Assembly: GCA_036381125.1 (NCBI GenBank)
Contig: DASVDK010000177.1
Location: forward strand, 6,104-70,103
Direction of reading: 5' to 3'
DNA: 64,000 bases
Origin: Thermodesulfobacteriota bacterium
Lineage (GTDB): Bacteria > DASVDK01
The position numbers were made by a program, and so were the translations under genes. The notes beneath the pieces were generated by a model, which was not told the DNA's origin, did no database searches, and saw only the letters and a list, made by a program, of their open reading frames with translations. This document shows, piece after piece, positions 4,470 to 63,900 of this stretch. Position 1 is the first letter of the stretch. The number at the start of each line of letters is the position of its first letter.

Positions 4470-4472
4470 CGC

Positions 4473-5342
4473 CTACCGCCCCGACGGTCTGGCGCGGCCG
4501 AGGAGGCCAGACGGGCGCCAGAGGAGGATGGCCGCGAGGATGACGAACGCCACGAGGTTCTTGTACGTGGCGGGCAAGAGGAGCGTGCTCCACTCCTGCG
4601 CGAGCCCGACGATCAGGGCGCCGACGAGGGCGCCGCTCAGGCTGCCGAGGCCGCCGAGGACGGCGACGGCGAAGACCGGCAGCAGGAGGTTCCACCCCAT
4701 GAGCGGCGACACGACGGTCTCCAGCGCCAGGAGCCCGCCCGCGACGCCGGCCAGGATCCCCGTGGCGAACCAGACGATCCGGGCCACCCGCTCGGCGTCG
4801 ATGCCGGAGGCCAGCGCCACTTCCGGGTTGTCGGCCGTGGCCCGGATCGCCTTGCCGATCCGCGTGCGCGCGAGCAGCAGGTGGCCGACGACGAGCAGGA
4901 CGACGGAGACGCCGACCATCACGAGCTGATAGGGCCCGATCCTGAGCCCGAGGACCTCGAGCGGCCGGAGCACCGGCAGGTCGAACGCCCGCATCCGATT
5001 GCCCGCGACGAACCGCACCGCGTTCTGCAGGATGAACATGACCCCGATCGACATGAGCAGGGGCGGGAGCGGGCCGTAGCGGCGCACGCGCCGGAAGAGG
5101 CCCTGGTCGAGCCCCGTGGCGAGCGCGCCGACGAGCAGGCCGGCGCCGCCCACGGCGAGCGGCAGCGGAACGCCGACGACCTGGAGCGCGACGGCGACGT
5201 ACGCGCCGACCATGACCAGCTCCGCAATGGCGAAGTTGGGGTAGTGGAGCAGGCCGTAGACGAGCGTCAGCGCCGAGGCCGGCAGCGCGAGGATGCTGGC
5301 CGAGACGAGGCCGTAGAGGGCGTACTGGGCGAGGAGGTCCAT
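4473..5342 (-). CDS. livH: branched-chain amino acid ABC permease (LivH-like)
   Basis: The C-terminal part of the 950 aa track ORF starts MDLLAQYALYGL... and is hydrophobic. ATG inferred at 5342. Confidence 0.85.
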   Translation of the reverse strand: MDLLAQYALYGLVSASILALPASALTLVYGLLHYPNFAIAELVMVGAYVAVALQVVGVPLPLAVGGAGLLVGALATGLDQGLFRRVRRYGPLPPLLMSIGVMFILQNAVRFVAGNRMRAFDLPVLRPLEVLGLRIGPYQLVMVGVSVVLLVVGHLLLARTRIGKAIRATADNPEVALASGIDAERVARIVWFATGILAGVAGGLLALETVVSPLMGWNLLLPVFAVAVLGGLGSLSGALVGALIVGLAQEWSTLLLPATYKNLVAFVILAAILLWRPSGLLGRARPSGR

Positions 5343-17826: not shown

Positions 17827-18084
17827 TTACCGGTCGCGATCGGTCGCCGGGCGCAGGTCGCTCGGGTACGTCGCCACGCGCTTGCGTTCCGCGCGGGACG
17901 GGGCGCCGGAGCCGTCGCTCTCGCCGTTCACCGTCTTGCCGGCCGGCATGGCCAGGGGCGAGGGGGCGGCGGTCTCGATTACCATGCGCCGGTCCCGGGC
18001 GATCTCCTCGATGGGCCTGGCGGCGGCAGGCGTGGCGGCGATGGCCGCGAGCGCGACGGCAAGCGCGACGAACGGGGTCTTCAT
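17827..18084 (-). CDS. small secreted protein, paralog B (85 aa)
   Basis: Signal peptide MKTPFVALAVALAAIAATPAAA. The core PLAMPAGKTVNGESDGSGAPSRAE aligns with paralog A. ATG inferred at 18084 inside the 143 aa track ORF. Confidence 0.6.
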   Translation of the reverse strand: MKTPFVALAVALAAIAATPAAARPIEEIARDRRMVIETAAPSPLAMPAGKTVNGESDGSGAPSRAERKRVATYPSDLRPATDRDR

Positions 18085-18530
18085 GGCGGCGGTCCTCGGG
18101 GAGGTACGCCCGCCCGGGGAGCATGCTTCGTGCCGGGGCGGGCAGTCACGCAAGAAATCGAAGAGAGACGGCCGCTTACGTGACACTCCTGTGAGGATCG
18201 CGGACTTCCCGCTGCGGCACGGCATTGCGAAACGGAACGACGCCCGCTCCACATGCAACAGAGCCTCGGCCCTCCGAATCGGAGCCTGCGTCGATCAGGG
18301 GCGGAAGCGCTGTACATTGGAGCCTCGCGAAGGTCCACATGGGACGATCGGAGTGACCGTATGGCCTGCGAGACGCCTTTCGTGCCCGCTTCTGGGGGCT
18401 CGTGTGCGATCGCTGGCGCGCGTGGAGCATCGGAGAAGCGCCCGTGTCCCTCTCCGAACTGGATCCCGAGATCGTCGCCGAACACGGTCCCGTGAATGCC
18501 AGCTTGCCGAGGCTCGTCCAGGCGCGGCCG

Positions 18531-19118
18531 CTACCCGGCCTGGAGGAGCCGCACGGCCCGCCCTTCTCGTGCGATCCGCCCCTCGGCCTCGAGCGCGGCG
18601 AGGGTCCGGTAGAGCGCTTCGTGCGTGAGGCCGATCTCGGCCGCGACCTGCTTGAGCGGACGATCGCCGCCGATCGCGCCGCGCGGGGCCAGGGCGAGGT
18701 ACTGGAGGACGCGCGCCCGCGCCGATCGGACGTTGCGCAGCTCGAGGCGCGCACGGAGCACCTGGATCTGCGCCGCCATCTGCCGCATGAAGCCTTCGGC
18801 GACCTCCGGGTCCGCGCGCAGGGCGCGCCTCACGGCCGCCCGGGGCAGCACCGCGACGCGCGAGGGGACCTCGGCCACGGCGTCGCAGTGGTAGCGGTCG
18901 GAGAAGAGCGCCGCCTCGGCGAACGTCTCGCCCGGGCGAGCCACGTGCACCGTCACGCCGACCCCCTCGCTCGTGTGCCGGACGAGCAGCACCCGCCCCG
19001 CCTCGACCACGAAGATCGCGGTCGTCGCGTACCCCTGTCGGAAGAGGGCTTCTCCGGCCGCGAGGTCGCGCCGCCGCGCGGAGTCGAGGAGCGCGGCGAA
19101 GGGGTCGGCCGCCGTCAT
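18531..19118 (-). CDS. Crp/Fnr-family transcriptional regulator
   Basis: cNMP-binding domain followed by a C-terminal HTH (QVAAEIGLTHEALYRTLAALEAEG). ATG at 19118 overlaps the stop of the upstream decarboxylase (ATGA). Confidence 0.8.
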   Translation of the reverse strand: MTAADPFAALLDSARRRDLAAGEALFRQGYATTAIFVVEAGRVLLVRHTSEGVGVTVHVARPGETFAEAALFSDRYHCDAVAEVPSRVAVLPRAAVRRALRADPEVAEGFMRQMAAQIQVLRARLELRNVRSARARVLQYLALAPRGAIGGDRPLKQVAAEIGLTHEALYRTLAALEAEGRIAREGRAVRLLQAG

Positions 19119-19891
19119 GCGGCCGGCAGGGACAGGACGGCGCCGCGGGCCACGCCGAAGGCGTCGAGGTGACCGGTCACCGTCCGCCCGGGGTCGAGCA
19201 GGTGGACGTGGATCCGCTCGCCCGGGTGGCTGATGACCCCCTCGAGCGCCGCGCCGGAATGGAAGCCCACCAGGTCGGCCGCCATCCGATCGCCCCGCCG
19301 GACGACCCGGGCCGCGGCGGCGTGCCTGCCGCGACCGCCGTGCCCACCTCGGCCGCCGTGCCCGCCGCCCGGCGGCTCGCCGGGACCGGCCAGCACGTGC
19401 CAGGCGTAGCCGGTGACGACGCCCCGCACGAGGAAGGGGAAGGGGCGGGAAACGTCGATGCCGCGGCGCCCCGCCGTCGCGGCGACCGCCGCCTCGAGCG
19501 CGGGCATGGAGGCGAGGTCGGCCTCGACCGGCTCCGCCGTCCAGCGGTCCACCCGGGCGGTCACGAGGAGGGCCGCCTCGGCGTCGCGAGGCGCCGGCAC
19601 GATCCTGCCGTCGGCTCGCCGACCGTAGCTCACGAAGAGGCGGCTCCCCTCCGCGGTCACCTCGCCCTCGAGGCCCGCCAGGGCGCCGACGGCGTAGACG
19701 CCGGGCGCGGCGACCGCATCGGCGAGCCTCACCCGCCCGGCGACGGCGCCGTCGCGCATCATCCGCTCGAAGTGGCCGTAGACGCGGATGTCGAAGGGCA
19801 GGTCGTCGGCGGCGCGGGCGAGGCGGGGCGGCGCCGCGAGGCTGCCGGCGGCCACGGCGAGGAGCGTGCGGCGAGTGAGCCGAGCGCGCAT
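19115..19891 (-). CDS. alpha-acetolactate decarboxylase family protein with a Tat signal and a Gly/His/Arg-rich insert
   Basis: Twin-arginine motif TRRTLLAVAAGSLAAP…ARA. ALDC-like blocks GVYAVGALAGLEGEVTAEGSRLFVSYG and ADLVGFHSGAALEGVISHPGERIHVHLLD. A strong SD GGGAGGAT sits 5 nt before the ATG at 19891. Confidence 0.7.
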   Translation of the reverse strand: MRARLTRRTLLAVAAGSLAAPPRLARAADDLPFDIRVYGHFERMMRDGAVAGRVRLADAVAAPGVYAVGALAGLEGEVTAEGSRLFVSYGRRADGRIVPAPRDAEAALLVTARVDRWTAEPVEADLASMPALEAAVAATAGRRGIDVSRPFPFLVRGVVTGYAWHVLAGPGEPPGGGHGGRGGHGGRGRHAAAARVVRRGDRMAADLVGFHSGAALEGVISHPGERIHVHLLDPGRTVTGHLDAFGVARGAVLSLPAA

Positions 19892-19948
19892 GGGGTATCC
19901 TCCCGGTGCGGGTCCGCCGGCCACTCTGCCGCGGGCCGTCCGGCTCGC

Positions 19949-19966
19949 ATATGATCCGGATCATAT
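19949..19966. promoter_or_regulatory. perfect 18-bp palindrome ATATGATCCGGATCATAT (FNR/CRP-like TGAT-N4-ATCA box)
   Basis: Seen directly. Its centre lies about 66 nt upstream of the decarboxylase ATG, and a Crp/Fnr regulator gene is the second gene of the same operon. Confidence 0.55.
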
Positions 19967-20293
19967 CATCCGGCGGAGGTCGGCGCGGCCAGCGCCCTGG
20001 GAGTGGACGTGTCCGAGCGGATGCTGGCGCGTGCGAAGGCGGAGACCCGGGACGCGGCGATCTCGTATATCAGGGCCGACCTGGAGGGCCTTCTGGGCAG
20101 GGTCCACGCGGCGCTTGCGCCCGGCGGCCATCTGCTCTTCTCGGTCGAGCACCCGATCGTTACCGCGCCCACCGATCCAGGCTGGTCGGTCGATGCCGCG
20201 AGACGCGCGGCGTGGCCCGTCCGCGGGTACCCCGACGAGGGCCCCCGTCGCACGGATTGGCTCGTGGCGTGCCGCTGTTCGACCTACCGGTAG
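19955..20293 (+). pseudogene. 5'-truncated class I SAM-dependent methyltransferase remnant
   Basis: The frame reads …GVDVSERMLARAKAETRDAAISYIRADLEGL…LAPGGHLLFSVEHP… (post-I and motif II regions). The GxGxG motif I is missing because an in-frame stop lies at 19952-19954. Confidence 0.5.
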
Positions 20294-21072
20294 CCGGTCG
20301 CGTCCGCCGGTCTGCCGGCCTCCTGAACCTCCCGGATGTAGCGCCAGCAGTCCGGTTGCGATCCGTCGAGGTCGGTGAAGCCGTAGACCTTCGCGAGCCC
20401 GCCGCTCGAGAGCGACTGTCCCGTCCAGCGGGCCTTCTGCGGGTCGGCGGCGAGCGCGGCGACGGCGCGTCCGACGAAGCGCGGGGACTCGGAGATCACG
20501 AAGTGGGGCGACCTGGCCGTGGCGTCGCGCCAGTTCTCCTCGGTGACGCCGTAGGTGTCGAGCATCATCTCGGAGCGCATCCACCCCGGCGTGATCGACA
20601 CCGCCGTGGCGCCGTGGCGCGCGAGGTCCCTGGCGTGCGCCCAGGCCATCCGTATGGCGGCGACCTTGGCGAGGTCGTAGAAGACCGACAGGCGGTAGTG
20701 GTCCGCGTTGTACTCCGCCGTGCCGCCGGTCACCTCGACCATGAGGCCGCCGGGGTTCGCGATTCGAACAGGCGTTCGCCGCCCCAGATGTCGTTCACCA
20801 GGACGTCGAGCCGTCCCGTTCCGTCCGGATTCGCGCGACCAGCGCTTCGACCTCGCTCGGGACGAGATGGTCGACGCGAACCGCGATGCCCTCGCCGCCG
20901 GCCCCGGTGACCAACGCCGCGGTCTCCTCGATGGTCTCGGGACGGCCGTACTCCGACATCTGGCTTCGGGTGGTGCGGCCGGTCACGTAGACCGTGGCGC
21001 CTGCCGCGCCGAGCTCGATCGCGATTCCGCGCCCCGCGTCGCGCCGGCGACGAGCGCCACCTTTCCCTCGAG
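20284..21072 (-). pseudogene. SDR-family oxidoreductase disrupted by frameshifts and an internal deletion
   Basis: The N-terminus MRSLEGKVALVAGATRGAG reads in one frame. …GRGIAIELGAAGATVYVTGR…RIRTERDG reads in a second. RLDVLVNDIWGGERLFE reads in a third. …GGLMVEVTGGTAEYNADHYRLSVFYDLAKVAAIRMAW… is in yet another frame. About 40 expected residues between WGGERLFE and PGGL are missing. Confidence 0.55.
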
Positions 21073-21263
21073 CGATCGCATCCGTTCGCCCCGATCTCGC
21101 GCGCGTGTCGCGCGCGGCCTCCGTGACCTGCCCCCCGGCTCGGACGTCTCCGGGCGCCCGGGTCTCCTGGGTGCAGGGTGGCGCCGGCGGGCCGGGCGGC
21201 CAACGCACGCGGCGCCTGCGACGGGCCCCCGCGCCGGTCGAGGACCTGACCTGGTCCCCGGAC

Positions 21264-22055
21264 CTAGGCCCCGTCCCCCTTCGCCAGCACGCGTGCGAGG
21301 AAGCGCCGCGTCCGGTCGTGGCGCGGGTTGCCGAGCACCTCGTCGGGCGGCCCCTCCTCGACGATCACGCCCCCGTCCATGAACACGACCCGGTCGGCCA
21401 CCTCGCGGGCGAAGCCCATCTCGTGCGTCACGACCACCATCGTCATGCCGTCGGCGGCGAGCCCGCGCATCACCTTGAGCACCTCGCCGACGAGTTCCGG
21501 GTCGAGCGCGGAGGTGACCTCGTCGAAGAGCATGATCTCGGGCTCCATCGCCAGCGCACGCGCGATGGCCACCCGCTGCTGCTGCCCGCCCGAGAGGCGC
21601 GAGGGGTACTGGTCCGCCTTCTCGGCGAGGCCGACCCGGGCGAGCTACCGCCGGCCGATCTCGAGCGCCTGCTCCCGGGGGAGCTTGCGGACGACGAGCA
21701 GCGCCTCGATGACGTTGCCGAGGGCGGTCCTGTGCGGCCAGAGGTTGTAGGCCTGGAAGACGATGCCGATCCGCTGGCGCATGGCGTTGAGGCGAGCCGC
21801 CGAGTCGCGCACCCAGCCGCCGGCCGGGCCCTCGCGCAGGCCGATCGGCTCGCCGTTGATGTACACCATCCCCCGGGTCGGCTCCTCGAGGAAGTTGATG
21901 CAGCGCAGCAGCGTGCTCTTGCCGGAGCCCGAAGGGCCGATCAGGCAGAGGACCTCGCCCCGCCCGATCTCGAGGTCGATTCCCCTCAGCACCTCGAAGC
22001 TGCCGAAGGACTTGTGGAGGCCGACGATCTTCACGGCGGGGACGTCGGCAGTCAT
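21264..22055 (-). pseudogene. polar amino acid ABC transporter ATP-binding protein (GlnQ-like) with an in-frame amber stop
   Basis: Walker A GPSGSGKSTLL. After …LEIGRR a TAG sits at 21645-21647 where a Tyr codon is expected. The same frame then continues [42 protein letters not shown]…. Confidence 0.6.
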
Positions 22056-22714
22056 CAGCGGAGATGCCTCGTCACGCGGCGCTCGAGGACCCGGCCGCCC
22101 CACGCGACGACGTCCGTGAGCGCCCAGTACATGAGCCCCGAGAGGATCAGGGCCTCGAAGGGGGCGTAGCTCTCGGCGATGACCTGGTAGGCGCGGTAGG
22201 TCAGCTCCGGCACGGTGATGACCGACAGGATCGAGGACCACTTGAGGACGCCGGTGAACTCGTTCGTCAGGGCGGGCGTCACGAGGGCGGCCATGATCGG
22301 CACCGTGACGCGGCGCAGCGTCTGCCAGTAGCTCATGCCGAGCGACCGTGCCGCCTCGATCTGCCCCTTGTGCACCGCCGTGATCCCCGCCCGGAAGATC
22401 TCCGACGTGTACGCGCCGACGTAGAGGGACAGGGACGTCACGCCGGACACGACCGGGGGCAGGGTGAGGTGATAGTAGGGGGCCGCCGCGTACAGGAAGT
22501 AGACCTGGACGAGGAGCGGCGTCCCCCGGATCAGCTCGACGTAGCCGCGGGCGACGAGCCGAAGCGGCCGCCACGGCGAGAGGCGCGCGACCGCCGTGAG
22601 GAGGCCGAGGGCCAGGCCGATCGCCATGGAGAGGACGGAGATCCACACCGTCGTCACGGAGGCGCGCACGAACAGGGGCCAGATCTCGGCGAGGAGCGCC
22701 TGGTCGAGGACCAT
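22055..22714 (-). CDS. polar amino acid ABC transporter permease
   Basis: MVLDQALLAEIWPLF…, an EAA-like loop and a polytopic profile. Its stop overlaps the ATG of the downstream ATPase gene. Confidence 0.8.
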   Translation of the reverse strand: MVLDQALLAEIWPLFVRASVTTVWISVLSMAIGLALGLLTAVARLSPWRPLRLVARGYVELIRGTPLLVQVYFLYAAAPYYHLTLPPVVSGVTSLSLYVGAYTSEIFRAGITAVHKGQIEAARSLGMSYWQTLRRVTVPIMAALVTPALTNEFTGVLKWSSILSVITVPELTYRAYQVIAESYAPFEALILSGLMYWALTDVVAWGGRVLERRVTRHLR

Positions 22715-23394
22715 CAGCGGTGCGCCACGAGGCGCCGCTCGAGCGCGTGCGACGCCCAGAAGATGGCCGCGTTGACGAGCAGGTAGAGGAGCGCCACCGC
22801 GAAGTAGATCTCGAGCGGGCGCAGGAGGCGGCCGACGAGCTGGTGGCCGGCGCGCGTCAGCTCGATGATGGCCAGCACCGAGATCAGGGAGGAGCCCTTG
22901 AGGAGGCTCGCCGCCTCGTTCGTGAGGGCCGGCAGGACGTTGCCGACCACCTGGGGGAGCACGATGCGACGGACCGCCTGCCACTGCGTCATGCCGAGCG
23001 AGCGCGCGCTCTCCACCTGGCCCTTCGGGAGGGCCACGATCCCGCCCCGCAGGATCTCGGCCGTGTACGCGCCGCCGTTCAGGCCGAGGGCGAGCACCGC
23101 CGACTGGAGCGGGGTGAGGTCGATCCCGACGAGCGGGGGCAGGTAGAAGATGGCGTAGAGCTGGATGAGGAGCGGCGTGCCCCGGACGGCGTCGACGTAG
23201 AGGAACGCAAGTGCCCGGACGGCACGCGAGGCCGACAGCCGCGCGAAGGCGACCGGGACCGCGAGGACGCCCGCCAGCAGGATCCCGAGCGCCGAGATCT
23301 GAAGGGTGACGAGAGCCCCCCGGACGAGGACCGGGAGGCTCTCGACGACGACGCCCGGGTCGAACCCGGGCAGAACGTCCGCAAAGCCGGCCAC
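22714..23394 (-). CDS. polar amino acid ABC transporter permease
   Basis: 226 aa HisM/GlnP-like permease. Its stop overlaps the start of the next permease. Confidence 0.8.
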   Translation of the reverse strand: MAGFADVLPGFDPGVVVESLPVLVRGALVTLQISALGILLAGVLAVPVAFARLSASRAVRALAFLYVDAVRGTPLLIQLYAIFYLPPLVGIDLTPLQSAVLALGLNGGAYTAEILRGGIVALPKGQVESARSLGMTQWQAVRRIVLPQVVGNVLPALTNEAASLLKGSSLISVLAIIELTRAGHQLVGRLLRPLEIYFAVALLYLLVNAAIFWASHALERRLVAHR

Positions 23395-23397
23395 CGC

Positions 23398-24240
23398 CTA
23401 CTTGGCGTAGACCACCTGGTCGGGTACGTCCATGGGCCCGCCGAACCACTTGATCTGCAGCTCTCGCAGCGTGCCGTCCTTCTTGAGGGCGAGGATGCGC
23501 TGGCTGAACCAGTCGGCCAGCTCCTGGTCCTCCTTGCGGGTCGCCCACGAGAAGAAGGTCTGCTCGCCGAGCTGCCCGGCCGTCTTGTACTTGCCCGGCT
23601 GCTGCTTGATCAGGTAGAGCGCGTTCGGCAGGCCGTTCAGCGTGGCGTCGAGCCGGCCGTTCTCCACGTCGGTGTAGATCTCGGCGAAACCGACGTACTC
23701 GCGCAACTCCTTGATCGGCGCCCGCCCCTTGCGCGCCAGGTCCTCGCTGAGCGCCCTGGCGGCGGCGAGGTAGCGCGTGCCCTGCGGCGCGCCGACCACC
23801 TTGCCCGACAGGTCCTCGGGCTTCGTCACCGCTGCGTTGTCCGCCCTGGTGATGATCGTGGCCGTGCCGACCGCCGTGGGAACGGTGAACGCGAAGCGGC
23901 GCGCCCGCTCCTCGGTGGCGAAGAGCGCGGTCACCACGGCGTCGAACTTCTTCCCCTGGAGCCCTGCGAGGAGGGACTGGAAGGGGACGTCGAGCTGGGT
24001 GATCTTCACCCCCTGCTCGGTGAGGTCCTTCATCACCAGCGCGAAGAGATCGGCGTGGTAGCCGATGATCTTGCCGTCCTTCACGAACTCGAACGGCGCG
24101 TAGCCGGCCTCCGTCCCGACGACGATCTCCTTCCTGGCCTTGATCTCGTCGAGGATGCCGGCCGTGGCGGGGGCGGCGGAGAGGGCCGCCGCCAGCGCGA
24201 GGGCCGCCGCCGTCGTCCAGGGCGCGAGCAGTCTCGTCAT
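23398..24240 (-). CDS. polar amino acid ABC transporter substrate-binding protein (family 3)
   Basis: Signal peptide MTRLLAPWTTAAALALAAALSAAPATAG followed by a periplasmic binding fold. Confidence 0.85.
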   Translation of the reverse strand: MTRLLAPWTTAAALALAAALSAAPATAGILDEIKARKEIVVGTEAGYAPFEFVKDGKIIGYHADLFALVMKDLTEQGVKITQLDVPFQSLLAGLQGKKFDAVVTALFATEERARRFAFTVPTAVGTATIITRADNAAVTKPEDLSGKVVGAPQGTRYLAAARALSEDLARKGRAPIKELREYVGFAEIYTDVENGRLDATLNGLPNALYLIKQQPGKYKTAGQLGEQTFFSWATRKEDQELADWFSQRILALKKDGTLRELQIKWFGGPMDVPDQVVYAK

Positions 24241-24300
24241 GCAACCCTCCTCTCCCGGTGGTTGTTAGGATACATGAAAATACGTCTTCGGAGGCGGCTC

Positions 24301-25131
24301 ATGACGGAGAACCTCTGGCCCTCGGGCACCCGCTGCCCGGTCACGCTCACGGTGGACGTGGACGGCATGTCGGTCTGGCTCAACCGGGGGCCCGAGTTCG
24401 CCCGACTGCCGTCCATCTGCTCCATGGGGGAGTACGGCCCGAACGTGGGCGTCCCGCGGATCCTCGACCTGCTCGACGCCGAGGGGGTGAAGGCCACCTT
24501 CTTCGTGCCCGGCTTCGAGGCGGAGCACCACCCGGCGCTCGTGCGGGACATCCTTGCCCGCGGGCACGAGGTCGCCCACCACGGCTACAAGCACGAGCAC
24601 GTCTGGAAGCTCTCGCCCGAGGCGGAGCGGGAGGTGTTCCTGCGCGGCCTCAAGGCCTTGCAGGACGTGACCGGCCAGACCCCGCGCGGCTGGCGCGCGC
24701 CAGGCGGGGAGATGAGCCCCCACTCGATCGACCTCCTCGCCGAGCACGGCTTCCTCTACTCGAGCAGCCAGATGGGGAACGACGTTCCCTATCCGGCGAG
24801 CGAGCGGCAGCCGGAGATCGTCGAGGTGCCGATCCACTGGATGCTCGACGACTACAGCTACTTCTTCTACCAGCCGTGGGTGGGGGCGGGCGCTCCGCCC
24901 GCCACGCCGGACCACGCCTTCGCGGCCTTCTCGGCGGAGTTCGACGGGCTCTACCGGTTCGGCCGCATGTTCATGGTCGTCATGCACCCCGAGATCACGG
25001 GGCGGGCGTCGCGACTGACGGTGCTCGAGCGGATCATCCGGCACGCCAGGAGCCGGCCGGGTGTCCGCTTCATGCGGGTCGTGGACCTCGTCGAGACCTG
25101 GGTGGCGACCCGGGCCGGGGGGCCTCGCTAG
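24301..25131 (+). CDS. polysaccharide deacetylase family protein (NodB homology domain)
   Basis: NodB-type blocks LTVDVD, ATFFVPG and HGYKHEH. ATG at 24301 with a GGAGG SD, inside a larger artifactual track ORF. Confidence 0.8.
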   Translation: MTENLWPSGTRCPVTLTVDVDGMSVWLNRGPEFARLPSICSMGEYGPNVGVPRILDLLDAEGVKATFFVPGFEAEHHPALVRDILARGHEVAHHGYKHEHVWKLSPEAEREVFLRGLKALQDVTGQTPRGWRAPGGEMSPHSIDLLAEHGFLYSSSQMGNDVPYPASERQPEIVEVPIHWMLDDYSYFFYQPWVGAGAPPATPDHAFAAFSAEFDGLYRFGRMFMVVMHPEITGRASRLTVLERIIRHARSRPGVRFMRVVDLVETWVATRAGGPR

Positions 25132-25737
25132 GGGCGGCCGGCGGCCGCGTTGCCGAAGGCGCGTTCGGCATCGGCCACCGTCGTGAGGCGGCAGAAGACG
25201 TGCGAGAGGCAGAGGAGCGCGGCGCGGTGGCGCTCGAGACTCGTGGCGGCCACGCCGTCCTCGACGAGGAAGACGCGGTAGTCGAGGTTCCGGGCGCGCT
25301 GGACGGTCGCGCTCACGCAGACGTCGGTGCAGACGCCGGCGACGACGAGCTGGCGGACGCCGAGCATGCGCAGCAGGCCGTCGAGGTCGGTCCCCTCGAA
25401 GGCGTCGTACCGGCGCTTGCTCGTGATGTGGTAGTCCCCGGGCGCGACCGCGAGGCCGGCAACGAGGTCGGCGCCGGGCGTGCCTTCGATGCAGTGGATC
25501 GCCTCGTACTCGAGCTCGATGCCGAAGTCCGAGAGGTCCGGCCGGTGGCGTTCGTGCGTGAAAATCACCGGCACGCCGGCCGACCGGGCGGCGGCGGTGA
25601 GGCGGTTGATCCGGGGGACGAGGGCGAGGCCGTCCAGCGTCTCCGCCGGCGCGCCGGGGTCGAGGAAGTCGCGTTGCATGTCGATGACGAGCACTGCGGC
25701 ACCTTCCGCGGAGAGCGGGGGCGACGGTCGTACGGGT
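25128..25737 (-). CDS. isochorismatase-family cysteine hydrolase
   Basis: AAVLVIDMQRDF…IFTHE…CVSATVQRA is the Asp/Lys/Cys triad layout. The GTG start is approximate. Confidence 0.7.
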
Positions 25738-25802
25738 CGTGGCACGGCGATCCCTCGTCGAGGCCACGATTGTAGCCGGCGGTCCGCCGAGAAGGGAGAG
25801 AG

Positions 25803-26513
25803 ATGCACGAGGACGACATCTACCGGCAGCTCAAGGCCGCGATCGTCGGCCATCGTCTGCCTCCCGGGACGCGGCTCGCGGAGGAGTCGCTGGCCGAGGC
25901 CTTCGGCGTGAGCCGGACGCCGATGCGCAACGTCCTGCGCCGGCTCTCCTACGAGCGGCTCGTCGTGATCGAGCGCAACCGGGGCGCGTCGGTCTGCTCG
26001 CCGTCCCCCCAGGACGCCCGCGAGGTCTTCGAGATGCGCCGGATCCTCGAGGACGCGGTCGTGCAGCGGATCGCCTCGCGGCTCGGCCCGGACGATCTCG
26101 CGAGGCTCAGGGAGATCGACGCGGCCGACGCCGCGGCCGCGGCCCGGGGCGACTTCCCGGCCTCGGTGCGCATCGCCGTCGACTTCCACCTGACGCTCGC
26201 CAGGTTCACCGGCAACAGCCTGCTCGTGCGCAGCCTCACGGAGCTGGTCGACCTCACCTACGTCATCATCGCCCTCTACGGGCAACGGTTCGAGGAGATC
26301 GGCCGGACGGAGGGGCACGAGGCGCTCCTCGCCGCGCTCGAGGCGCGCGACGAGGCTCGCGCCCGCGCCGTCATGCGCGAGCACCTCGACCGGCTGGTCG
26401 CCGATCTCGACTACTCGCGTCCGGCCAGCCGGGAGATCGACTTCCGGCGCCTCTTCGCCCCGGCCTGGCAGAGCCGCCGGGGGGTCATCGGCGCACGCGG
26501 AAGAGGGCGCTGA
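25803..26513 (+). CDS. GntR-family (FadR/FCD-type) transcriptional regulator
   Basis: wHTH ESLAEAFGVSRTPMRNVLRRLSYERLV plus a helical FCD domain. SD gaagggagag. Divergent from the isochorismatase gene. Confidence 0.8.
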   Translation: MHEDDIYRQLKAAIVGHRLPPGTRLAEESLAEAFGVSRTPMRNVLRRLSYERLVVIERNRGASVCSPSPQDAREVFEMRRILEDAVVQRIASRLGPDDLARLREIDAADAAAAARGDFPASVRIAVDFHLTLARFTGNSLLVRSLTELVDLTYVIIALYGQRFEEIGRTEGHEALLAALEARDEARARAVMREHLDRLVADLDYSRPASREIDFRRLFAPAWQSRRGVIGARGRGR

Positions 26514-28017
26514 GGAGCCGCTTCACGCCCGGCGTGAGCTTCCTCCGACGCCACGCGTCCGCGGCCTTCCTCACGACCTCGGCCTGGGTGGGGTAGGGGT
26601 GGATCGTCCGGGCGATGGCGCCGAGGCCGATGCCGGCCGTGCAGGCGAGCGCGAGTTCGCCGACGATGTCCCCCGCGTGCTCGGCCACGATCGTGGCGCC
26701 GAGGATCCGATCGCCGCCGGCCTCGACGTGCACGCGCAGGAACCCCTCCGTCGCGCCGTCGAGCACGGCGCGGTCGACCTCCTCGAGCGGCACGGTGATG
26801 GTCTCCGCCGGGATGCCGGCCCGCGCCGCATCCGCTGCGGACATCCCGACGTGAGCGACCTCCGGGCTCGTGTAGGTGCACCGGGGCACCACGAGGCGCG
26901 AGGCCTTGCCGCGGCCGAAGAAGAGGGCGTTGGCCACGACGAGGCGCGCCTGGGCGTCGGCCACGTGGGTGAACTGGAGGCGCGAGCAGACGTCGCCGAT
27001 GGCGTAGACCCTCGGGTTCGTCGTGCGGAGCCGGTCGTCCACCGTCACGCCGCCCGGGCCGCAGGCGACGCCCGCCCGGGCGAGGTCGAGCGACTCGACA
27101 TTGGGCGTGCGGCCGGTCGCGACGAGGATCGCGTCCGCGACGACGGTCTCCAGCCGGCCGCCCTGTCGGACGTGGATCGCCGCCCCGGCGCCGCGCCGCT
27201 CCACCCGCTCGAGCGCGACCCCCGCCTGCACGACGACGCCGTCGCGCGTCATCGAGGCCTCGACCAGGCGCGCGGCGTCGGGGTCCTCCCGGGGCAGGAT
27301 CCGGGGCGCGGCCTCGAGCAACGTCACCCGGCTGCCGAACCGGGCGAACGCCTGCGCCAGCTCGCAGCCGGCGGCGCCCGCGCCGATCACCGCGAGGCGT
27401 TCGGGCAGGGACTCGAGCGAGAAGACGGTCTCGTTGGTGAGGGGGGCGGCTTCGGCGAGGCCGGGGACGGGCGGAATCGTGGGGCGCGCGCCGGTGGCGA
27501 TGACGCAGCGCCGGAAGACGAGCCGCGCGCCGTTCACCTCGACGGCGTCCGGGCCGGCGAAACGCCCCTCGCCGAGGAACACGTCCACGCCGAGGTCGCG
27601 GTAGCGACGGACGCTGTCGGTCTTCGAGAGGTCGGCGCGCAGCCGGCGCATGCGGCGCATCGCCGCGCCGAAGTCGCCCGGGCCCGAGACCGCCGGTGCG
27701 CCGAAGGCCTCGGCGCCGCGGCGGGTCTCGTGCCACGCGCGCGCCGCGCGAATCAGGGCCTTCGAGGGGACGCAGCCCACGTTGAGGCAGTCGCCGCCCA
27801 TGAGACGGCGCTCGACGAGCGCCACGCGAGCCCCGAGGGCGGCGGCCGCCGCCGCGGTGACGAGCCCGCCCGGCCCCGCGCCGATGACGACCAGGTGGTA
27901 GCGCGACTTCGGGTCGGGGTTGACGTAGCCGTCCGGGTGGACGTTGGCGAGGTGTCGGCGGTTCGCCTCGTCGAGCGGGTGGACGAGGCCGGGCGGACTA
28001 CCGTCCCGCGGCGGCAT
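26485..28017 (-). CDS. FAD-dependent pyridine nucleotide-disulfide oxidoreductase (mercuric reductase/dihydrolipoamide dehydrogenase family)
   Basis: FAD fold VVIGAGPGG, redox-active disulfide GGDCLNVGCVPSK and a C-terminal dimerisation domain. Confidence 0.8.
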   Translation of the reverse strand: MPPRDGSPPGLVHPLDEANRRHLANVHPDGYVNPDPKSRYHLVVIGAGPGGLVTAAAAAALGARVALVERRLMGGDCLNVGCVPSKALIRAARAWHETRRGAEAFGAPAVSGPGDFGAAMRRMRRLRADLSKTDSVRRYRDLGVDVFLGEGRFAGPDAVEVNGARLVFRRCVIATGARPTIPPVPGLAEAAPLTNETVFSLESLPERLAVIGAGAAGCELAQAFARFGSRVTLLEAAPRILPREDPDAARLVEASMTRDGVVVQAGVALERVERRGAGAAIHVRQGGRLETVVADAILVATGRTPNVESLDLARAGVACGPGGVTVDDRLRTTNPRVYAIGDVCSRLQFTHVADAQARLVVANALFFGRGKASRLVVPRCTYTSPEVAHVGMSAADAARAGIPAETITVPLEEVDRAVLDGATEGFLRVHVEAGGDRILGATIVAEHAGDIVGELALACTAGIGLGAIARTIHPYPTQAEVVRKAADAWRRRKLTPGVKRLLSALFRVRR

Positions 28018-39143: not shown

Positions 39144-40025
39144 TCAGCGTCCCGGCGCCCGCGCCTCCCCGCGAAGGGGCCCCCGCGCCTCGTCCTCCTC
39201 GCGGGCCGACCAGATGAGGAAGACGGTGGTGAGGGCGAAGAGCCAGAAGAACCCGCCCGCCACCCACATGATGAGCGCCCCGAGCTGCTGGTCGTAGAGG
39301 GCCGTCATGTCCGTGACCCGCGGCGCCTCGGCGTACCAGGGATAGAGCGGCTCGGTGGCGAGGGCGATGATCGCGCCCACGAGGGAGCCGGGCACGATCT
39401 GGAAGAAGAGATAGAGCATGGCGACCGGCGGCGCGAGCCTCGGCCAGCCGGGGACGCCGAGGGGGCCGCTGACGGGCCACCACATGATCACCGCGGTCAC
39501 CAGGTAGGCGAGGTGAAGCGCGATGTGGAAGTCGTGGTTCCGCATCTGCAGCTCGTACACGGGCACCACGTGGGAGACGGCGAAGAGGACGTTGAAGATC
39601 AGGAAGGCCGGCACCGGCCGCGTCACCCGGCGGCCGAGGGGGCCGATCACCCGCATGCGCGCGAGGGGCCGGAACGCCCAGGCCGGCATTCCGGCGAGGA
39701 GGAGCGGCGCCACGACCAGCGTCACGAGGAGGTGCTGCACCATGTGGACGCTGAAGAGGCAACAGTCGCCGTACTCGTGGATCGGACCGCTGAGCGCACC
39801 GAACATGACGGCGACCCCGGCCACGAAGGCCGCCTGCCGCGCGCGGTGAACCGGCGCCGACCCGGCGATCCGCGCGCGTCCCGGTCCGACGAGCCAGAAG
39901 TACCCGGCGAGAAGGGCGAGGCACCCGATGACGATGCTCGGGTGCCCGAGCCAGACGGTGAGCCCGTCGGGGACCGTGTAGGTCCCCGACGACGGGTCGA
40001 GGACGAGCGGATGGGAGAGGAGCAC
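39144..40025 (-). CDS. ctaG: cytochrome c oxidase assembly factor CtaG (Caa3_CtaG family) membrane protein
   Basis: Polytopic protein last in the cox operon. HMVQHLL…YELQMRNHDFHIALHLAYL motifs. Confidence 0.65.
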   Translation of the reverse strand: MLLSHPLVLDPSSGTYTVPDGLTVWLGHPSIVIGCLALLAGYFWLVGPGRARIAGSAPVHRARQAAFVAGVAVMFGALSGPIHEYGDCCLFSVHMVQHLLVTLVVAPLLLAGMPAWAFRPLARMRVIGPLGRRVTRPVPAFLIFNVLFAVSHVVPVYELQMRNHDFHIALHLAYLVTAVIMWWPVSGPLGVPGWPRLAPPVAMLYLFFQIVPGSLVGAIIALATEPLYPWYAEAPRVTDMTALYDQQLGALIMWVAGGFFWLFALTTVFLIWSAREEDEARGPLRGEARAPGR

Positions 40026-40029
40026 CCCG

Positions 40030-40356
40030 CTACCAGAGCCCCTTGAAGAGGGCGATGAAGGACAGGATCGTCGCCGTCGCCACCATGAGGCCGAAGAGGA
40101 AGAAGCCCGAGAAGATCCGGCTGTCGAACTTGAGGTGCATGTAGTAGGCGACGACGAGGGCGAACTTCAACGTGCCGAGCGCGAGGATCGTCGGGACGAG
40201 GATCGGCCGCAGGAAGGTCGCGTAGTAGGTCCAGACCTCGACCGCCGTGACGACGGTGAGGATGACGGCGATCTTCCAGTAGGTCGCGTCCGACGCGTGC
40301 GTCTGGTGCGCCGCCTGGTGGCCCGTCTGCGAGATGGCGTTGCCGTGGTCGCTCAT
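40030..40356 (-). CDS. cytochrome c oxidase subunit IV (prokaryotic CoxIV family)
   Basis: A 108 aa two-TM protein with YWKIAVILTVVTAVEV…, sitting between coxC and ctaG. Start inferred at MSDHG. Confidence 0.7.
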   Translation of the reverse strand: MSDHGNAISQTGHQAAHQTHASDATYWKIAVILTVVTAVEVWTYYATFLRPILVPTILALGTLKFALVVAYYMHLKFDSRIFSGFFLFGLMVATATILSFIALFKGLW

Positions 40357-40367
40357 GCGCGTGGCTC

Positions 40368-41000
40368 CTACGGGATCAGGTAGATGATCGCGAAGAGGAC
40401 GATCCAGACGATGTCGACGAAGTGCCAGTAGAGGCCGCAGATCTCCACGTTGATGGCGTTCGCCGGCGTGAGGCGGCCGGTGAACGACCAGAGGAAGAGG
40501 GAGAGCAGCCAGACGACCCCCACCGTCACGTGCGCGCCGTGGAACCCGGTCAGGGTGAAGAAGGTCGCGCCGAAGAGGTTGCCGCCGAGCGAGAGCCCCT
40601 TGTGATAGAACTCCGTGAACTCGTAGACCTGGAAGCCCACGAAGATCGAGCCGAGGGCGGCGGTCATGAAGATCCAGAAGCGGAACTTCCGCATGTTGCC
40701 GGCGGTGATGCCCGAGAGCGCCAGCACCATGGCGAGGCTGCTCATGAGGAGCACGAACGCGCTCACCGACGTGAGCGGGATGTTCAGGATCCCCTCGCCG
40801 AGCGCCGTCGTGTGCGGCGTCGGTCCGACGGCGTCCCGCCCCTTGTAGACGAGATAGGTCGCGATGAGCGACCCGAAGAACATGCAGTCCGAGCCGAGGA
40901 ACGCCCACCAGAGCATCTTGCGGTGGTCGAGCCCCGTTGCCGTCGCGTGCTCGACGCCGTGCGCGTCGAGGTGGGCGGTGGCGGAATGGGTTGCGGACAT
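40368..41000 (-). CDS. coxC: cytochrome c oxidase subunit III
   Basis: 210 aa with …FFGSLIATYLVY… and …TGFHGAHVTVGVVWL…. Confidence 0.9.
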   Translation of the reverse strand: MSATHSATAHLDAHGVEHATATGLDHRKMLWWAFLGSDCMFFGSLIATYLVYKGRDAVGPTPHTTALGEGILNIPLTSVSAFVLLMSSLAMVLALSGITAGNMRKFRFWIFMTAALGSIFVGFQVYEFTEFYHKGLSLGGNLFGATFFTLTGFHGAHVTVGVVWLLSLFLWSFTGRLTPANAINVEICGLYWHFVDIVWIVLFAIIYLIP

Positions 41001-41031
41001 GGGTTGTCGTCTCCTCGAGATGTCGTTCGGC

Positions 41032-42849
41032 CTAGCTGGCCGGCTCGAAGGCCCACGCGAAGAAGCCCGCGAGCATGATCCCCACGCCGGTCAGGAAGAC
41101 CGGCACCGAGTGCGAGACGCCGCCGGCGCCCATGGCCAGCAGGCCCACGGCGGCGAACGCCGGCCAGAACGACGGGTTCGGCAGGTGGATGCCGTGACCG
41201 TCGCCGGCCGTGACCCCGGTCTGGCTCCGCTCCTCCCAGAGCGGGTAGCGGCTCTGCACCGTCGGGACCACGGCGAAGTTGTAGGCCGGAGGCGGTGAGG
41301 GGATCGACCACTCGAGGGTCGGCGCGTCCCACGGGTTGACCGGCGCGCGGTCGCCGCTGCGCAGGCTCTTCATGAGGGTCCAGATGAAGACCAGGAACGC
41401 CAGCATGAGCACGAAGGCGCCGATGGTCGAGGCCATGTTGAGGCCGCCGAGCCCGAGCTCCTCGTGGTACGTGTAGATGCGGCGAGGCATCCCCAGGAGC
41501 CCGATCATGTGCATCGGGAAGAAGGTGAGGTTGAACCCGATCAGGGCGAGCCAGAACACCACCTTCCCGAGCTTCTCGTCGAGCATCTTCCCCGTCATCT
41601 TCGGGAACCAGTAGTGGAAGCCCCCGAGGAGGGCGAAGAGCGCCCCGCCGAACAGCACGTAGTGGAAGTGGGCGACGATGTAGTACGTGTCGGTCTGCTG
41701 CAGGTCGGCCGGCGGCGAGGCGTGGTGCACGCCCGACAGCCCGCCCATCGTGAACATCGCGATGAAGGCGACCCCGTAGAGCAGCGGCGTCCGCATCGCG
41801 ATGGACCCGCCCCAGAGCGTCGCGAGCCAGTTGAAGATCTTGACGCCGGTCGGGATGGCGATCGCCATCGTCGTGACGGCGAAGATCGCGTCGGCGAGCG
41901 GCCCCATGCCGACCGCGAACATGTGGTGCGCCCAGACGCCGAAGCCGAGCACGGCGATCCCGATGCCCGAGAGGATGACGAAGGGATAGCCGAACAGCGG
42001 CTTGCGCGCGAACGTCGGCAGCACCTCGGAGATGATGCCGAAGGCCGGCAGGATCAGGATGTAGACCTCCGGGTGGCCGAACACCCAGAAGAGGTGCTGC
42101 CAGAGCACCGGATCACCGCCGCCCTGCGGGATGTAGAAGTGCGTCCCGAAGTACCGGTCGAACGTGAGGAGGATCAGCGCGACCGTGACGACCGGAAACG
42201 CCAGGGCGACCAGGACGTTCGTGATGAGCGTCATCCAGACGAACGGCGGCATCCGCATCAGCCGCATGCCCGGCGCGCGGAGGTTCACGATCGTCACGAT
42301 GAAGTTGAAGGCCGAGGCGAGCGACGAGACGCCGAGGATCTGGAGCCCCACGAGCCAGTAGTCCACCGACTTGCCCGGCGAGTACTGCGGCGAGGTGAGG
42401 TTCGCGTAGCCGAACCACCCCGTGTCCGGCGCCGCCCCCGCGATCCAGCTCCAGTTCAGCACGAGCGCCCCGGCGAGGAAGACCCAGTAGCTGAACGCGT
42501 TGAGCCTCGGAAACGCCACGTCCCGCGCGCCGATCATGAGCGGCACGAGGTAATTGAAGTACATGGCGTTGAGCGGCATGATCGCCAGGAAGATCATCGT
42601 CGTGCCGTGCATCGTGAAGAGCTCGTTGTAGGTCTGAGCCGTCACGAGGTCGTTGTTCGGCACGGCGAGCTGCGTGCGGATGATCAGCGCCTCGATGCCT
42701 CCGAGCAGGAAGAAGACGAAGGCGCTCACACCGTAGAGGATGGCGATCCGCTTGTGGTCGACGGTGGTGATCCAGCTCCACACGCCGCCGGCGTACGGGC
42801 TCACCGCCGGGGCGGCGGCGGCCGTTGCGCCCATGGCTCTCGTCGTCAT
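41032..42849 (-). CDS. coxA: cytochrome c oxidase subunit I
   Basis: WFGHPEVYILILPAFGIISEV and HHMFAVGM copper/heme ligand motifs. ATG at 42849 overlaps the coxB stop (ATGA). Confidence 0.95.
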   Translation of the reverse strand: MTTRAMGATAAAAPAVSPYAGGVWSWITTVDHKRIAILYGVSAFVFFLLGGIEALIIRTQLAVPNNDLVTAQTYNELFTMHGTTMIFLAIMPLNAMYFNYLVPLMIGARDVAFPRLNAFSYWVFLAGALVLNWSWIAGAAPDTGWFGYANLTSPQYSPGKSVDYWLVGLQILGVSSLASAFNFIVTIVNLRAPGMRLMRMPPFVWMTLITNVLVALAFPVVTVALILLTFDRYFGTHFYIPQGGGDPVLWQHLFWVFGHPEVYILILPAFGIISEVLPTFARKPLFGYPFVILSGIGIAVLGFGVWAHHMFAVGMGPLADAIFAVTTMAIAIPTGVKIFNWLATLWGGSIAMRTPLLYGVAFIAMFTMGGLSGVHHASPPADLQQTDTYYIVAHFHYVLFGGALFALLGGFHYWFPKMTGKMLDEKLGKVVFWLALIGFNLTFFPMHMIGLLGMPRRIYTYHEELGLGGLNMASTIGAFVLMLAFLVFIWTLMKSLRSGDRAPVNPWDAPTLEWSIPSPPPAYNFAVVPTVQSRYPLWEERSQTGVTAGDGHGIHLPNPSFWPAFAAVGLLAMGAGGVSHSVPVFLTGVGIMLAGFFAWAFEPAS

Positions 42850-43889
42850 TTGAGGCTCCCGAGGTAGGCGACCAGGGCCTGCACGGTCTCGTCGTTCAGG
42901 TTGAGGTTGGGCATCTTCGACCCGGGCTTCACCGCCGGCGGGTTCCTGAGCCACCGCGCGAGGTTCTCCGGGGTGTTCGGCATCATGCCTGCCGCGATGG
43001 TGTGGCGGCGGGCGAAGTACGTGAGGTCGGGCCCGATGACGCCGGCAGCGGGCGTGCCCGCGATCCGGTGGCACCCGATGCAGGCGCTGGTGATGAACGC
43101 CTGAGCACCTTTGGCCGCGAGCGGATCGGTCGTGTCCGGCGGCTTCGGGGCCTTGAAGTCCTGGACCCAGCGGTCGAACTCCGCCGGCTCGGCGACCACC
43201 ACGCGGAAGCCCATGTTGGCGTGCGAGGCGCCGCAGAACTCCGCGCACTGGCCCCAGAAGAGGTCGGCGACCTGCGGGGTCAGGCTGATGTGGTTCACGT
43301 GGCCGGGAACGAGGTCACGCTTGCCGCCGAGCTTCGGCGCCCAGAAGCTGTGGATCACGTCCGCCGACTCGAGGGCGATGTCGACCTTGCGCCCCCTGGG
43401 GAGCCAGAGGTCGTTCGCCGTGACGATGTCGAGCTGCGGGTAGCGGAACTCCCACCACCACTGGTGCCCGATCGCACGGACCTGCAGGTTCTCCTCGGCG
43501 GGCGGCGCCTGGGTGTCGAAGATCGTCTGCACGGTCGGCACCGCCACCGACGCCAGGATGAGCGCCGGGGCGAGCGTCCACGCGATCTCGATCCGGGTGT
43601 TGCCGTGGACCTGGGCCGGAAGCGGCTGGCCGGGCCTGCGGCGGAACCGGAAGATCGCATAGATCAACAGGACCTCGACCAGGATGAAGATCACGATGGA
43701 CCACCAGATGATGGTCCAGAAGAGGTCGTTGATGGTATGCGCGAAGTCCGAGTGCGGATCCATGGCGTTCTGGACGTACTCGCCAGCGCAACCGGACAGC
43801 AGGATCGTCAGAGCCGGGAGGACGACACCGGACAGGAAGCGGACCCGTCCGGGCCGCGCGTATGTGCCGTGTGCCACGCTGTGGACCAC
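42846..43889 (-). CDS. coxB: cytochrome c oxidase subunit II with fused C-terminal cytochrome c domain (caa3-type)
   Basis: CuA site HSFWAPKLGGKRDLVPG…CAEFCGASHANM, then CIGCHRI heme-binding in the C-terminal extension. Lipoprotein-like N-terminus. Confidence 0.9.
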   Translation of the reverse strand: MVHSVAHGTYARPGRVRFLSGVVLPALTILLSGCAGEYVQNAMDPHSDFAHTINDLFWTIIWWSIVIFILVEVLLIYAIFRFRRRPGQPLPAQVHGNTRIEIAWTLAPALILASVAVPTVQTIFDTQAPPAEENLQVRAIGHQWWWEFRYPQLDIVTANDLWLPRGRKVDIALESADVIHSFWAPKLGGKRDLVPGHVNHISLTPQVADLFWGQCAEFCGASHANMGFRVVVAEPAEFDRWVQDFKAPKPPDTTDPLAAKGAQAFITSACIGCHRIAGTPAAGVIGPDLTYFARRHTIAAGMMPNTPENLARWLRNPPAVKPGSKMPNLNLNDETVQALVAYLGSLK

Positions 43890-50422: not shown

Positions 50423-50515
<93 letters not shown>

Positions 50516-50563
50516 TCTGTGGAGGCGGGGTGCCCGGGGCGCCCCGCGTCGCCTGCATGCCCC

Positions 50564-50657
50564 GGAGAGATGTCCGAGTGGTTGAAGGAGCACGCCTGGA
50601 GAGCGTGTAGGCTGGCTCAAACCGGCCTCGAGGGTTCGAATCCCTCTCTCTCCGCCA
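50564..50657 (+). tRNA. tRNA-Ser (anticodon GGA)
   Basis: Same acceptor stem, anticodon loop CUGGAGA, long variable arm, TTCGAATCC T-loop and a 3' CCA. Confidence 0.9.
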
Positions 50658-50689
50658 GACACGCAGCAGCCCCGCCAGGCCGGCGCCGT

Positions 50690-50803
50690 GAGCGGTGGTC
50701 GCTGGGTCCTTCGCAACGGAGCGCGGCGAACCCCGCCAGGTCCGGAAGGAAGCAACGGTACCCGTTTCCTCCGTGTGCCGAAGGGGTGCCTAGCGATCAC
50801 CCT
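50690..50803 (+). ncRNA. ffs: signal recognition particle RNA (4.5S/ffs-like)
   Basis: Contains CAGGUCCGGAAGGAAGCA (helix 8 motif) and GUGUGCCG. The 5' GGUGGUCGCUGGGUCC can pair with the 3' GCCUAGCGAUCACC. It sits upstream of dnaX as in scr-dnaX-ybaB-recR arrangements. Ends are approximate. Confidence 0.7.
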
Positions 50804-50858
50804 TGACGGCGTCGGCCGGGCCCGGGGCGACCCGGACCCTGGCCGACCCGGAGTACCG

Positions 50859-52655: not shown

Positions 52656-52698
52656 GGTCACGGAGGACGCCGGAGCGGACGCCGGCCGCGAGCCGTTA

Positions 52699-53052
52699 AT
52701 GGAGATTCGCATGAACAAGAACATCGGCCAGCTCCTCAAGCAAGCCCAGAAGATGCAGCAGAAGATGCAGGAGCTGCAGGAGGAGCTGGGGAAGAAGACC
52801 ATCGAGGCGACGGCGGGCGGCGGCATGGTCACGGCCGTGGTCAACGGCAAGCAGGAGCTGGTGTCGCTCAGGATCGAGAAGGAGGTGATCGACCCGAACG
52901 ACGCCGCCATGCTCCAGGACCTCGTGGTCGCCGCCGTCAACGAGGCGATGGGCAAAGCCCGTCAGCTCGTGGCCGACGAGATGGGGAAGCTCACCGGCAG
53001 TCTCGGGCTGCCCGGCCTCGGGGGCCCGGGCGGTGGAGGGTTTCCCTTCTGA
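52699..53052 (+). CDS. ybaB: nucleoid-associated protein YbaB/EbfC
   Basis: …[21 protein letters not shown]…[27 protein letters not shown]…. Confidence 0.9.
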
Positions 53053-53648
53053 TCCCCTACGCCGGCCCCATCGCGGCCCTCATCGCCGAGCTGGCCAAGC
53101 TGCCGGGGGTGGGGGAGAAGACCGCCTCGCGGCTCGCCTTCCACATCCTGCGCGCCCCCCGGGGGGACGCCGACGCGCTGGCGCACGCCATCTTGCGGGT
53201 CAAGGACGAGATCCGGCTCTGCGGCACCTGCTTCAACGTGACCGACGTCGATCCCTGCCGCATCTGCGCGGACCCGAAGCGGGATCCGGCGCTCATCTGC
53301 GTCGTCGAGGAGCCGCCCGACCTCCTGGCCATCGAGCGGACGCGCGAGTACCGGGGGCGCTACCACGTGCTGCACGGCGCCCTCAACCCCATCGAGGGGG
53401 TCGGGCCGGAGGCGCTGCGCATCCGGGAGCTGCTCACGCGCCTCGCCGACGGCGAGGCGCGTGAGGTCATCCTCGCCACGAACCCGAACGTCGAGGGGGA
53501 GGCCACCGCCATCTATCTGTCGAAGCTCCTCAGGCCGCTCGGCGTGACGGTCAGCCGCATCGCCCACGGGGTGCCGATGGGGGGCGAACTGGAGTACGCC
53601 GACGAGGCGACGCTCGCGCGCGCCCTCGAGGGGCGCCGCGCGTTCTGA
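53052..53648 (+). CDS. recR: recombination protein RecR
   Basis: Hh[18 protein letters not shown], zinc finger [16 protein letters not shown] and a Toprim domain. Conserved N-terminal residues ([16 protein letters not shown]) start at 53052, but the first canonical start is the GTG at 53109. Confidence 0.8.
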
Positions 53649-63899: not shown

Positions 63900-63900
63900 C

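Follow-up and report, generated by a model that had tools for sequence, protein, structure and literature searches.

In the window analysed here, a stretch of 64,000 nucleotides, the gene for the ATP-binding subunit of a polar-amino-acid ABC importer is interrupted by one in-frame amber codon, at codon 137. The importer operon comprises four genes, this being the last, and the stop is probably a real nonsense mutation of recent origin. An ordinary gene-killing mutation beside older dead genes is the most likely account, and not an unusual genetic code. An initial annotation of the region had offered recent mutation, sequencing error and suppression of the stop as the possible explanations; this is a fair list, and the evidence ranks the three in that order.

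The interrupted ATPase gene

The operon, and the parts of its last gene, are arranged as follows.

23398–24240, minus strand: periplasmic substrate-binding protein, 280 residues
22714–23394, minus strand: permease subunit 1, 226 residues, intact
22055–22714, minus strand: permease subunit 2, 219 residues, intact
21264–22055, minus strand: ATP-binding subunit, 263 codons including one in-frame TAG
21648–22055, minus strand: part before the stop, 136 codons, with Walker A GPSGSGKST (residues 40–48, G40–T48) and the Q-loop glutamine Q101
21645–21647, minus strand: the in-frame amber codon, codon 137 (CTA on the plus strand)
21267–21644, minus strand: part after the stop, 126 codons, in frame and undamaged, with LSGGQ (154–158), Walker B, D-loop and H211

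The ATG of the ATPase gene overlaps the TGA stop of the permease gene at 22055–22714 (ATGA). Read from 22055 down to 21264 on the minus strand, the frame contains exactly one internal stop besides its terminal TAG (21264–21266), which stands at the point where homologs end. The amber codon follows 136 sense codons in the context CGG CGG TAG CTC, C being the base after the stop; the reading frame is unchanged there, and homology is colinear on both sides. The coordinates and the homology across the stop confirm the initial description of a single amber codon at 21645–21647 with the frame continuing after it. The codon was also correctly placed ahead of the ABC signature region, the LSGGQ motif lying 17 codons beyond.

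The Pfam ABC_tran profile matches residues 23–182 over its whole length (positions 1–137 of 137), spanning the stop, and the NCBIfam TcyN profile matches residues 7–258 (positions 3–249 of 250, E = 1.6e-98). Structure matches include 4YMS_J (E = 5.7e-89) and HisP, 1B0U (E = 8.3e-81), and the solved ArtP, HisP and related structures align with the window ATPase end to end, with no gap at codon 137. The motif set of an ABC ATPase is present in one reading frame, with Walker A, Q101, LSGGQ, Walker B with its glutamate, and H211 each at an invariant column in an alignment of 23 sequences (the window and 22 homologs); Walker B and the catalytic glutamate form the MLFDE of residues 175–179, in the part after the stop. 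The ATPases ArtP/ArtN, HisP, GlnQ, TcyN and EhuA (PDB 4YMS, 2OLJ, 4U00, 1B0U) share with it the fold family, the motif set and a full-length alignment; the window gene differs from these known polar-amino-acid ATPases in being stopped at codon 137, so that it has no uninterrupted frame for a full-length subunit. Identity is 85% to the closest relative in a multiple alignment (P0001, on NCBI metagenome contig JBFOMR010058979.1) and 76–79% to many intact homologs. Residues from about 75 to 86 form a 12-residue insertion that is absent from the closest relative. The frame is not open by chance; all 240 homologs sampled are uninterrupted at the codon-137 column.

In the proposed sequence of events a single C-to-T change would have converted a glutamine codon, CAG, to TAG at codon 137. 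With normal termination the part before the stop is the only product to be expected, a fragment of 136 residues that would retain Walker A and the Q-loop and would be without LSGGQ, Walker B, the catalytic glutamate, the D-loop and the H-loop. By what is established for ABC ATPases, such a fragment lacks everything that is needed for ATP hydrolysis in the dimer. With the motifs after the stop lost, it should be incapable of building the ATP sandwich dimer, which would leave the permeases and the binding protein with no motor. Rescue by internal restart, and with it a split gene, can be ruled out: past the stop, the earliest in-frame ATG, GTG or TTG is a GTG at 21572 (codon 162), downstream of the signature motif. 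We infer that the ATPase has lost its function and that the stop arose by mutation and is no artefact.

The operon partners

The three partners of the ATPase read cleanly. The binding protein has a Pfam SBP_bac_3 domain and an N-terminal segment that resembles a signal peptide; permease 1 has a full-length domain match, and permease 2 matches BPD_transp_1 over positions 1–183 of 184 and has an identical counterpart encoded in Logan contig L082. The operon is thus composed of SBP_bac_3, two BPD_transp_1 proteins with the HEQRo 3-TM signature (TIGR01726) and ABC_tran, the same layout of one family-3 binding protein and two 3-TM-type permeases that is found in polar-amino-acid importers. Its genes overlap or stand 4 bases apart, with the ATPase gene last of the four. 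The binding-protein gene itself terminates in TAG, four bases ahead of the permease 1 start and in the same frame.

A substrate cannot be assigned, because no NCBIfam equivalog cut-off was reached when the ATPase was scored against those for TcyN (cystine), EhuA (ectoine), HisP and GlnQ. The scores were 328.9 against a cut-off of 406 for TcyN and 302.7 against 345.4 for EhuA, and the two scores in the HisP/GlnQ test were 292.4 against 466 and 289.8 against 379.

The ancestral codon

Among the 120 best full-length homologs, the column of codon 137 holds methionine in 65, leucine in 44, valine in 7, threonine in 3, glutamine in one and tyrosine in none. In a further 120 hits leucine predominates (78), with 12 methionines, 12 glutamines, 2 tyrosines and a few others. 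Over all 240 homologs there are 199 leucines or methionines, 13 glutamines, 2 tyrosines and no stop, and the solved ArtP-type structures have leucine at this position. The site lies in a helix, varies among homologs with hydrophobic residues in the majority, and has no special role.

In the closest relative the codons read CGG CGC CAG CTC, as against CGG CGG TAG CTC in the window, and the flanking residues EIGRR-LARVG are common to both proteins. A change from CAG (Gln) to TAG by one C-to-T transition is the likeliest and most economical origin suggested by these sequences, although the ancestral CAG depends on one close relative, and TTG (Leu) and TAC (Tyr) are also a single step from TAG. 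The initial annotation had derived the stop from a tyrosine codon, TAC. This derivation is not supported: tyrosine is found in only 2 of 240 homologs and in none of the best 120, the closest relative has CAG, and TAC at codon 137 has no support from any sampled relative. The more distant HisP presumably has tyrosine here, in a segment that we take to read ALKYLAKVG. C-to-T change is the commonest route to a nonsense codon. In Salmonella pseudogenes, nonsense mutations are mostly C-to-T and G-to-A transitions (Feng et al. 2022, Nucleic Acids Res, PMC9122581).

Age of the lesion

Homologs have a sense codon where the stop stands and align colinearly before and after it, as expected of a nonsense pseudogene. 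The lesion appears to be single and young, because homology is unbroken across the stop and all the catalytic motifs are intact; the ATPase gene has no second lesion. Relative to the closest relative, from which the window genes are separated by a dS of about 0.4–0.5, dN/dS is 0.12–0.24 for the binding protein and permeases, 0.18 for the ATPase gene, and 0.085 for the ATPase codons after the stop. This last value gives no sign of long neutral drift. The stop is very recent in relation to the divergence from the closest relative. The gene is like ordinary bacterial pseudogenes that arose through one nonsense mutation: one in-frame stop, colinear homologs, a probable C-to-T origin and older, more degraded pseudogenes adjoining. 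It has nothing distinctive in comparison with these, beyond being very young and free of a second lesion. An otherwise perfect gene has the look of a very young mutation and, equally, the look of an error.

Decay of the neighbouring genes

The initial annotation called the operon otherwise intact. This is correct for the binding protein and both permeases; it does not extend to the locus, which has a dehydrogenase pseudogene directly downstream of the ATPase gene and a methyltransferase remnant beyond it.

20284–21081, minus strand: short-chain dehydrogenase pseudogene, in four pieces of homology and three frames
19955–20290, plus strand: probable class I SAM methyltransferase remnant, with sub-threshold partial domain matches

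Compared by tblastn with an intact homolog of 316 residues (P0250), the dehydrogenase pseudogene matches residues 11–26 at 21075–21028, 24–98 at 21043–20825, 102–117 at 20816–20769 and 156–316 at 20772–20287. Residues 118–155 of the homolog have no counterpart in the window, so that the pseudogene has a deletion of about 38 codons in addition to three frame changes. Two of the closest database relatives (P0242 and P0246) also look garbled in their central part. The contig of the closest relative was considered as a source of the ancestral dehydrogenase sequence through synteny, and was set aside, as a different gene follows the ATPase gene there.

In the plus-strand remnant, residues 9–46 match positions 19–58 of a profile of 97, and residues 36–60 match positions 75–98 of one of 98, all below threshold. 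It is probably what is left of a methyltransferase gene, with the N-terminal SAM-binding part and an internal segment of the domain missing.

Intact genes flank the operon on its opposite side: they encode a polysaccharide-deacetylase family member, an isochorismatase family member and a GntR/FCD regulator. Every gene checked elsewhere in the window has a full-length domain match, so that the disruptions are restricted to some 2 kb at the operon's 3′ end. Since the disruptions are clustered and one of them is a large deletion, they point to local biological decay rather than to a noisy assembly; a deletion of about 38 codons is beyond what read error can produce. The presence of the dehydrogenase pseudogene and the methyltransferase remnant next to the operon shows that this stretch is already under relaxed selection.

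Near the end of the window, an 88-codon open frame at 63678–63941 (minus strand) matches only the C-terminal half of an AHSA1/SRPBCC domain (61–125 of 125). It adjoins an ArsR-type regulator (63341–63733) and may be a truncated or frameshifted gene.

Accuracy of the assembly

The main rival to a real mutation, and a somewhat unlikely one, is that the TAG is an artefact of sequencing, assembly or consensus calling, such as a base-calling or polishing error, or a minority allele of a mixed population in a consensus derived from a metagenome, the real gene being intact. This reading stays alive because the sequence is probably metagenome-derived: the lineage is known only from metagenomes, and the window matches only short Logan contigs. 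These contigs, which represent a near-identical strain in public run SRR25158368, were reached through look-ups of the permeases, the GntR regulator and a Crp-like gene. Three of them match the window, at 17981–19769 (100%), 21903–23647 (one mismatch) and 23647–27370 (100%). Their sequence leaves out 19770–21902 and with it the TAG; the breaks on both sides of this interval would fit low coverage or a variant bubble.

The one mismatch, a nonsynonymous C/T difference, lies within the ATPase gene.

21998, minus strand: T in the window (TTC, Phe20), C in contig L082 (CTC, Leu20)

The closest relative also has CTC at codon 20. As the compared sequence includes only 152 bases of the ATPase gene, the chance that a lone mismatch would fall there is about 2%. 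The mismatch is weak evidence for any of three things: continuing change of the gene in the window strain, a polymorphic population at this place, or an assembly that is less reliable here. For the artefact it would imply at least two haplotypes or one local error, and the lack of a second lesion in the ATPase gene is also in keeping with that explanation.

Against an artefact, the other 7,257 of the 7,258 bases compared with these contigs are identical. Of about 70 genes examined for frame breaks, the 43 that were also checked by Pfam all gave full-length domain matches; there is no other stop or frameshift in the window save for the clustered and clearly biological lesions that adjoin the operon. 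The assembly looks accurate, and what else is disrupted in the window falls in two adjoining genes. At such accuracy, a random substitution that makes a stop in one particular gene is improbable.

Several searches were made for further sequences from the locus. Exact look-ups of the binding protein, the N-terminal fragment of 136 residues, two candidate C-terminal fragments and the open reading frame downstream gave no match; 124 residues centred on the stop, used as a protein query, returned no fragment above 70% identity. Exact DNA patterns searched in JGI metagenomes gave no match apart from a single non-homologous chance match. In a scan of genome collections the best identity was 64–67% among the matches listed, and a literature search for the run and assembly accessions found none. 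Some of the uncultured, soil-type lineages that supply the nearest relatives of the ATPase bear the label Methylomirabilota. The window's RecR shows 98% identity to that of a metagenome-assembled genome labelled Thermodesulfobacteriota bacterium.

Use of TAG as a terminator in the window

A frame scan, guided by third-position G+C, predicts about 70 genes in the window, ending in TGA (36), TAG (31) or TAA (3); for the 43 genes supported by Pfam the counts are 23, 19 and 1. TAG thus accounts for about 44% of the terminators. This use of TAG seems high for a genome of 73% G+C, and TAA is almost absent. Povolotskaya et al. (2012, PMC3549826) reported no increase of bacterial TAG frequency with G+C content. 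The G+C content of the window, about 73% overall, falls to 0.66–0.67 in one stretch only, in which lies a cytochrome c oxidase cluster at 39144–43889 (minus strand) that encodes a subunit II–cytochrome c fusion, subunits I, III and IV, and the CtaG assembly factor.

Six stops in the window have coding signal on both sides, and the ATPase TAG is the only one of them that is internal to a gene. Four were rejected as internal stops, the same-frame junctions at 4473, 11560, 23398 and 36708 each separating two complete genes; the sixth has an antisense signal after it. No other gene-internal stop was found among the approximately 70 genes of the window. At 4470–4475 (minus strand), between two Liv-type permeases (BPD_transp_2), and at 23395–23400 (minus strand), between the binding protein and permease 1, the junctions have the same compact layout: a TAG, one codon and the next start in frame. 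Read-through at either would fuse the neighbouring proteins.

ARAGORN reports four tRNAs in the window. Rfam supports three of them, tRNA-Ser (CGA), tRNA-Ser (GGA) and tRNA-Asn (GTT), as well as an SRP RNA; no tRNA with a CUA anticodon is among the three found in these 64,000 nucleotides. The fourth call, an 84-nt tRNA-Arg (GCG) at 27318–27401 (minus strand), has no support from Rfam and is probably a false positive; it sits in a pyridine-nucleotide-disulphide oxidoreductase gene (26485–28017). The two serine tRNAs belong to a housekeeping cluster at 50423–53648 (plus strand), with the SRP RNA at 50700–50798 and recR at 53109–53648. Judged from reading the translations only, 50859–52655 resembles dnaX and 52699–53052 may be ybaB.

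Read-through of the stop

We consider it improbable that the TAG allele is real and yet accompanied by functional ATPase, whether some of the protein is made by tRNA-Gln decoding of UAG-C (giving Gln137) or the allele coexists with an intact one in the population. Coexisting alleles are hinted at by the difference at residue 20, leucine in SRR25158368 and phenylalanine in the window.

Leaky termination taken by itself is quite improbable. It would resemble the ‘pseudo-pseudogenes’ of Salmonella enterica (Feng et al. 2022, Nucleic Acids Res, PMC9122581), where UAG followed by C is the kind of stop read through most, as a rule as glutamine: near-cognate decoding of UAG-C, most likely by tRNA-Gln, would yield a little full-length and possibly wild-type ATPase, and the transporter would keep residual activity. 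This could coexist with a nonsense mutation as the origin of the stop. In Salmonella pseudogenes UAG makes up 68.6% of the read-through stops, and glutamine was inserted at four of the six UAG codons that were mapped; C is enriched at the base after the stop and favoured at the base before it (PMC9122581). The window stop is a UAG followed by C, and the ancestral residue at codon 137 was likely glutamine. The base before it, in contrast, is G and not the favoured C. Read-through of the Salmonella pseudogenes was reported as low-level expression (PMC9122581). The stop is found in no relative (0 of 240), so that nothing suggests selection for it, and the use of TAG to end 44% of the window genes argues for efficient termination at UAG in this organism. 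A low level of read-through is conceivable from this comparison as a by-product, not as a designed mechanism.

Dedicated amber suppression or recoding, by a CUA suppressor tRNA, insertion of pyrrolysine or reassignment of UAG, would make the TAG a sense codon. The window gene has in common with such systems an in-frame UAG inside a conserved protein-coding gene, and the perfect continuation of the frame past the stop is the sole point in favour. In other respects it is unlike them. UAG is a frequent and genuine terminator in the window, closing 19 of 43 Pfam-supported and 31 of about 70 predicted genes, the ATPase and binding-protein genes included, and read-through at the latter would fuse the binding protein to the permease; under reassignment TAG would be rare as a terminator and many in-frame TAGs would be seen, as against the single internal one here. 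The tRNAs of the window (Ser-CGA, Ser-GGA and Asn-GTT) include none with a CUA anticodon. With a stop in none of the 240 homologs at this column, the codon also lacks the conservation that programmed read-through would show, and a variable, mostly hydrophobic helix position offers no functional reason for a special residue. To our knowledge, pyrrolysine occurs in methylamine methyltransferases and not in ABC ATPases. This explanation is exceedingly improbable.

Implications

With a recent nonsense mutation as the preferred explanation, the ATPase gene is best annotated as a pseudogene or possible sequence error, and metabolic reconstructions of this uncultured, GC-rich lineage should leave the importer out of the functional transporters. 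Beyond annotation the finding matters little. Two minor uses can be named. The locus illustrates stepwise decay cleanly, with an old pseudogene of multiple lesions beside a brand-new nonsense allele. The UAG-C context, reported as prone to read-through in Salmonella, would also make the gene suitable for testing leaky termination in a genome with unusually frequent TAG terminators, should the organism or its DNA come to hand; if read-through does occur, the transporter would be turned down rather than off.
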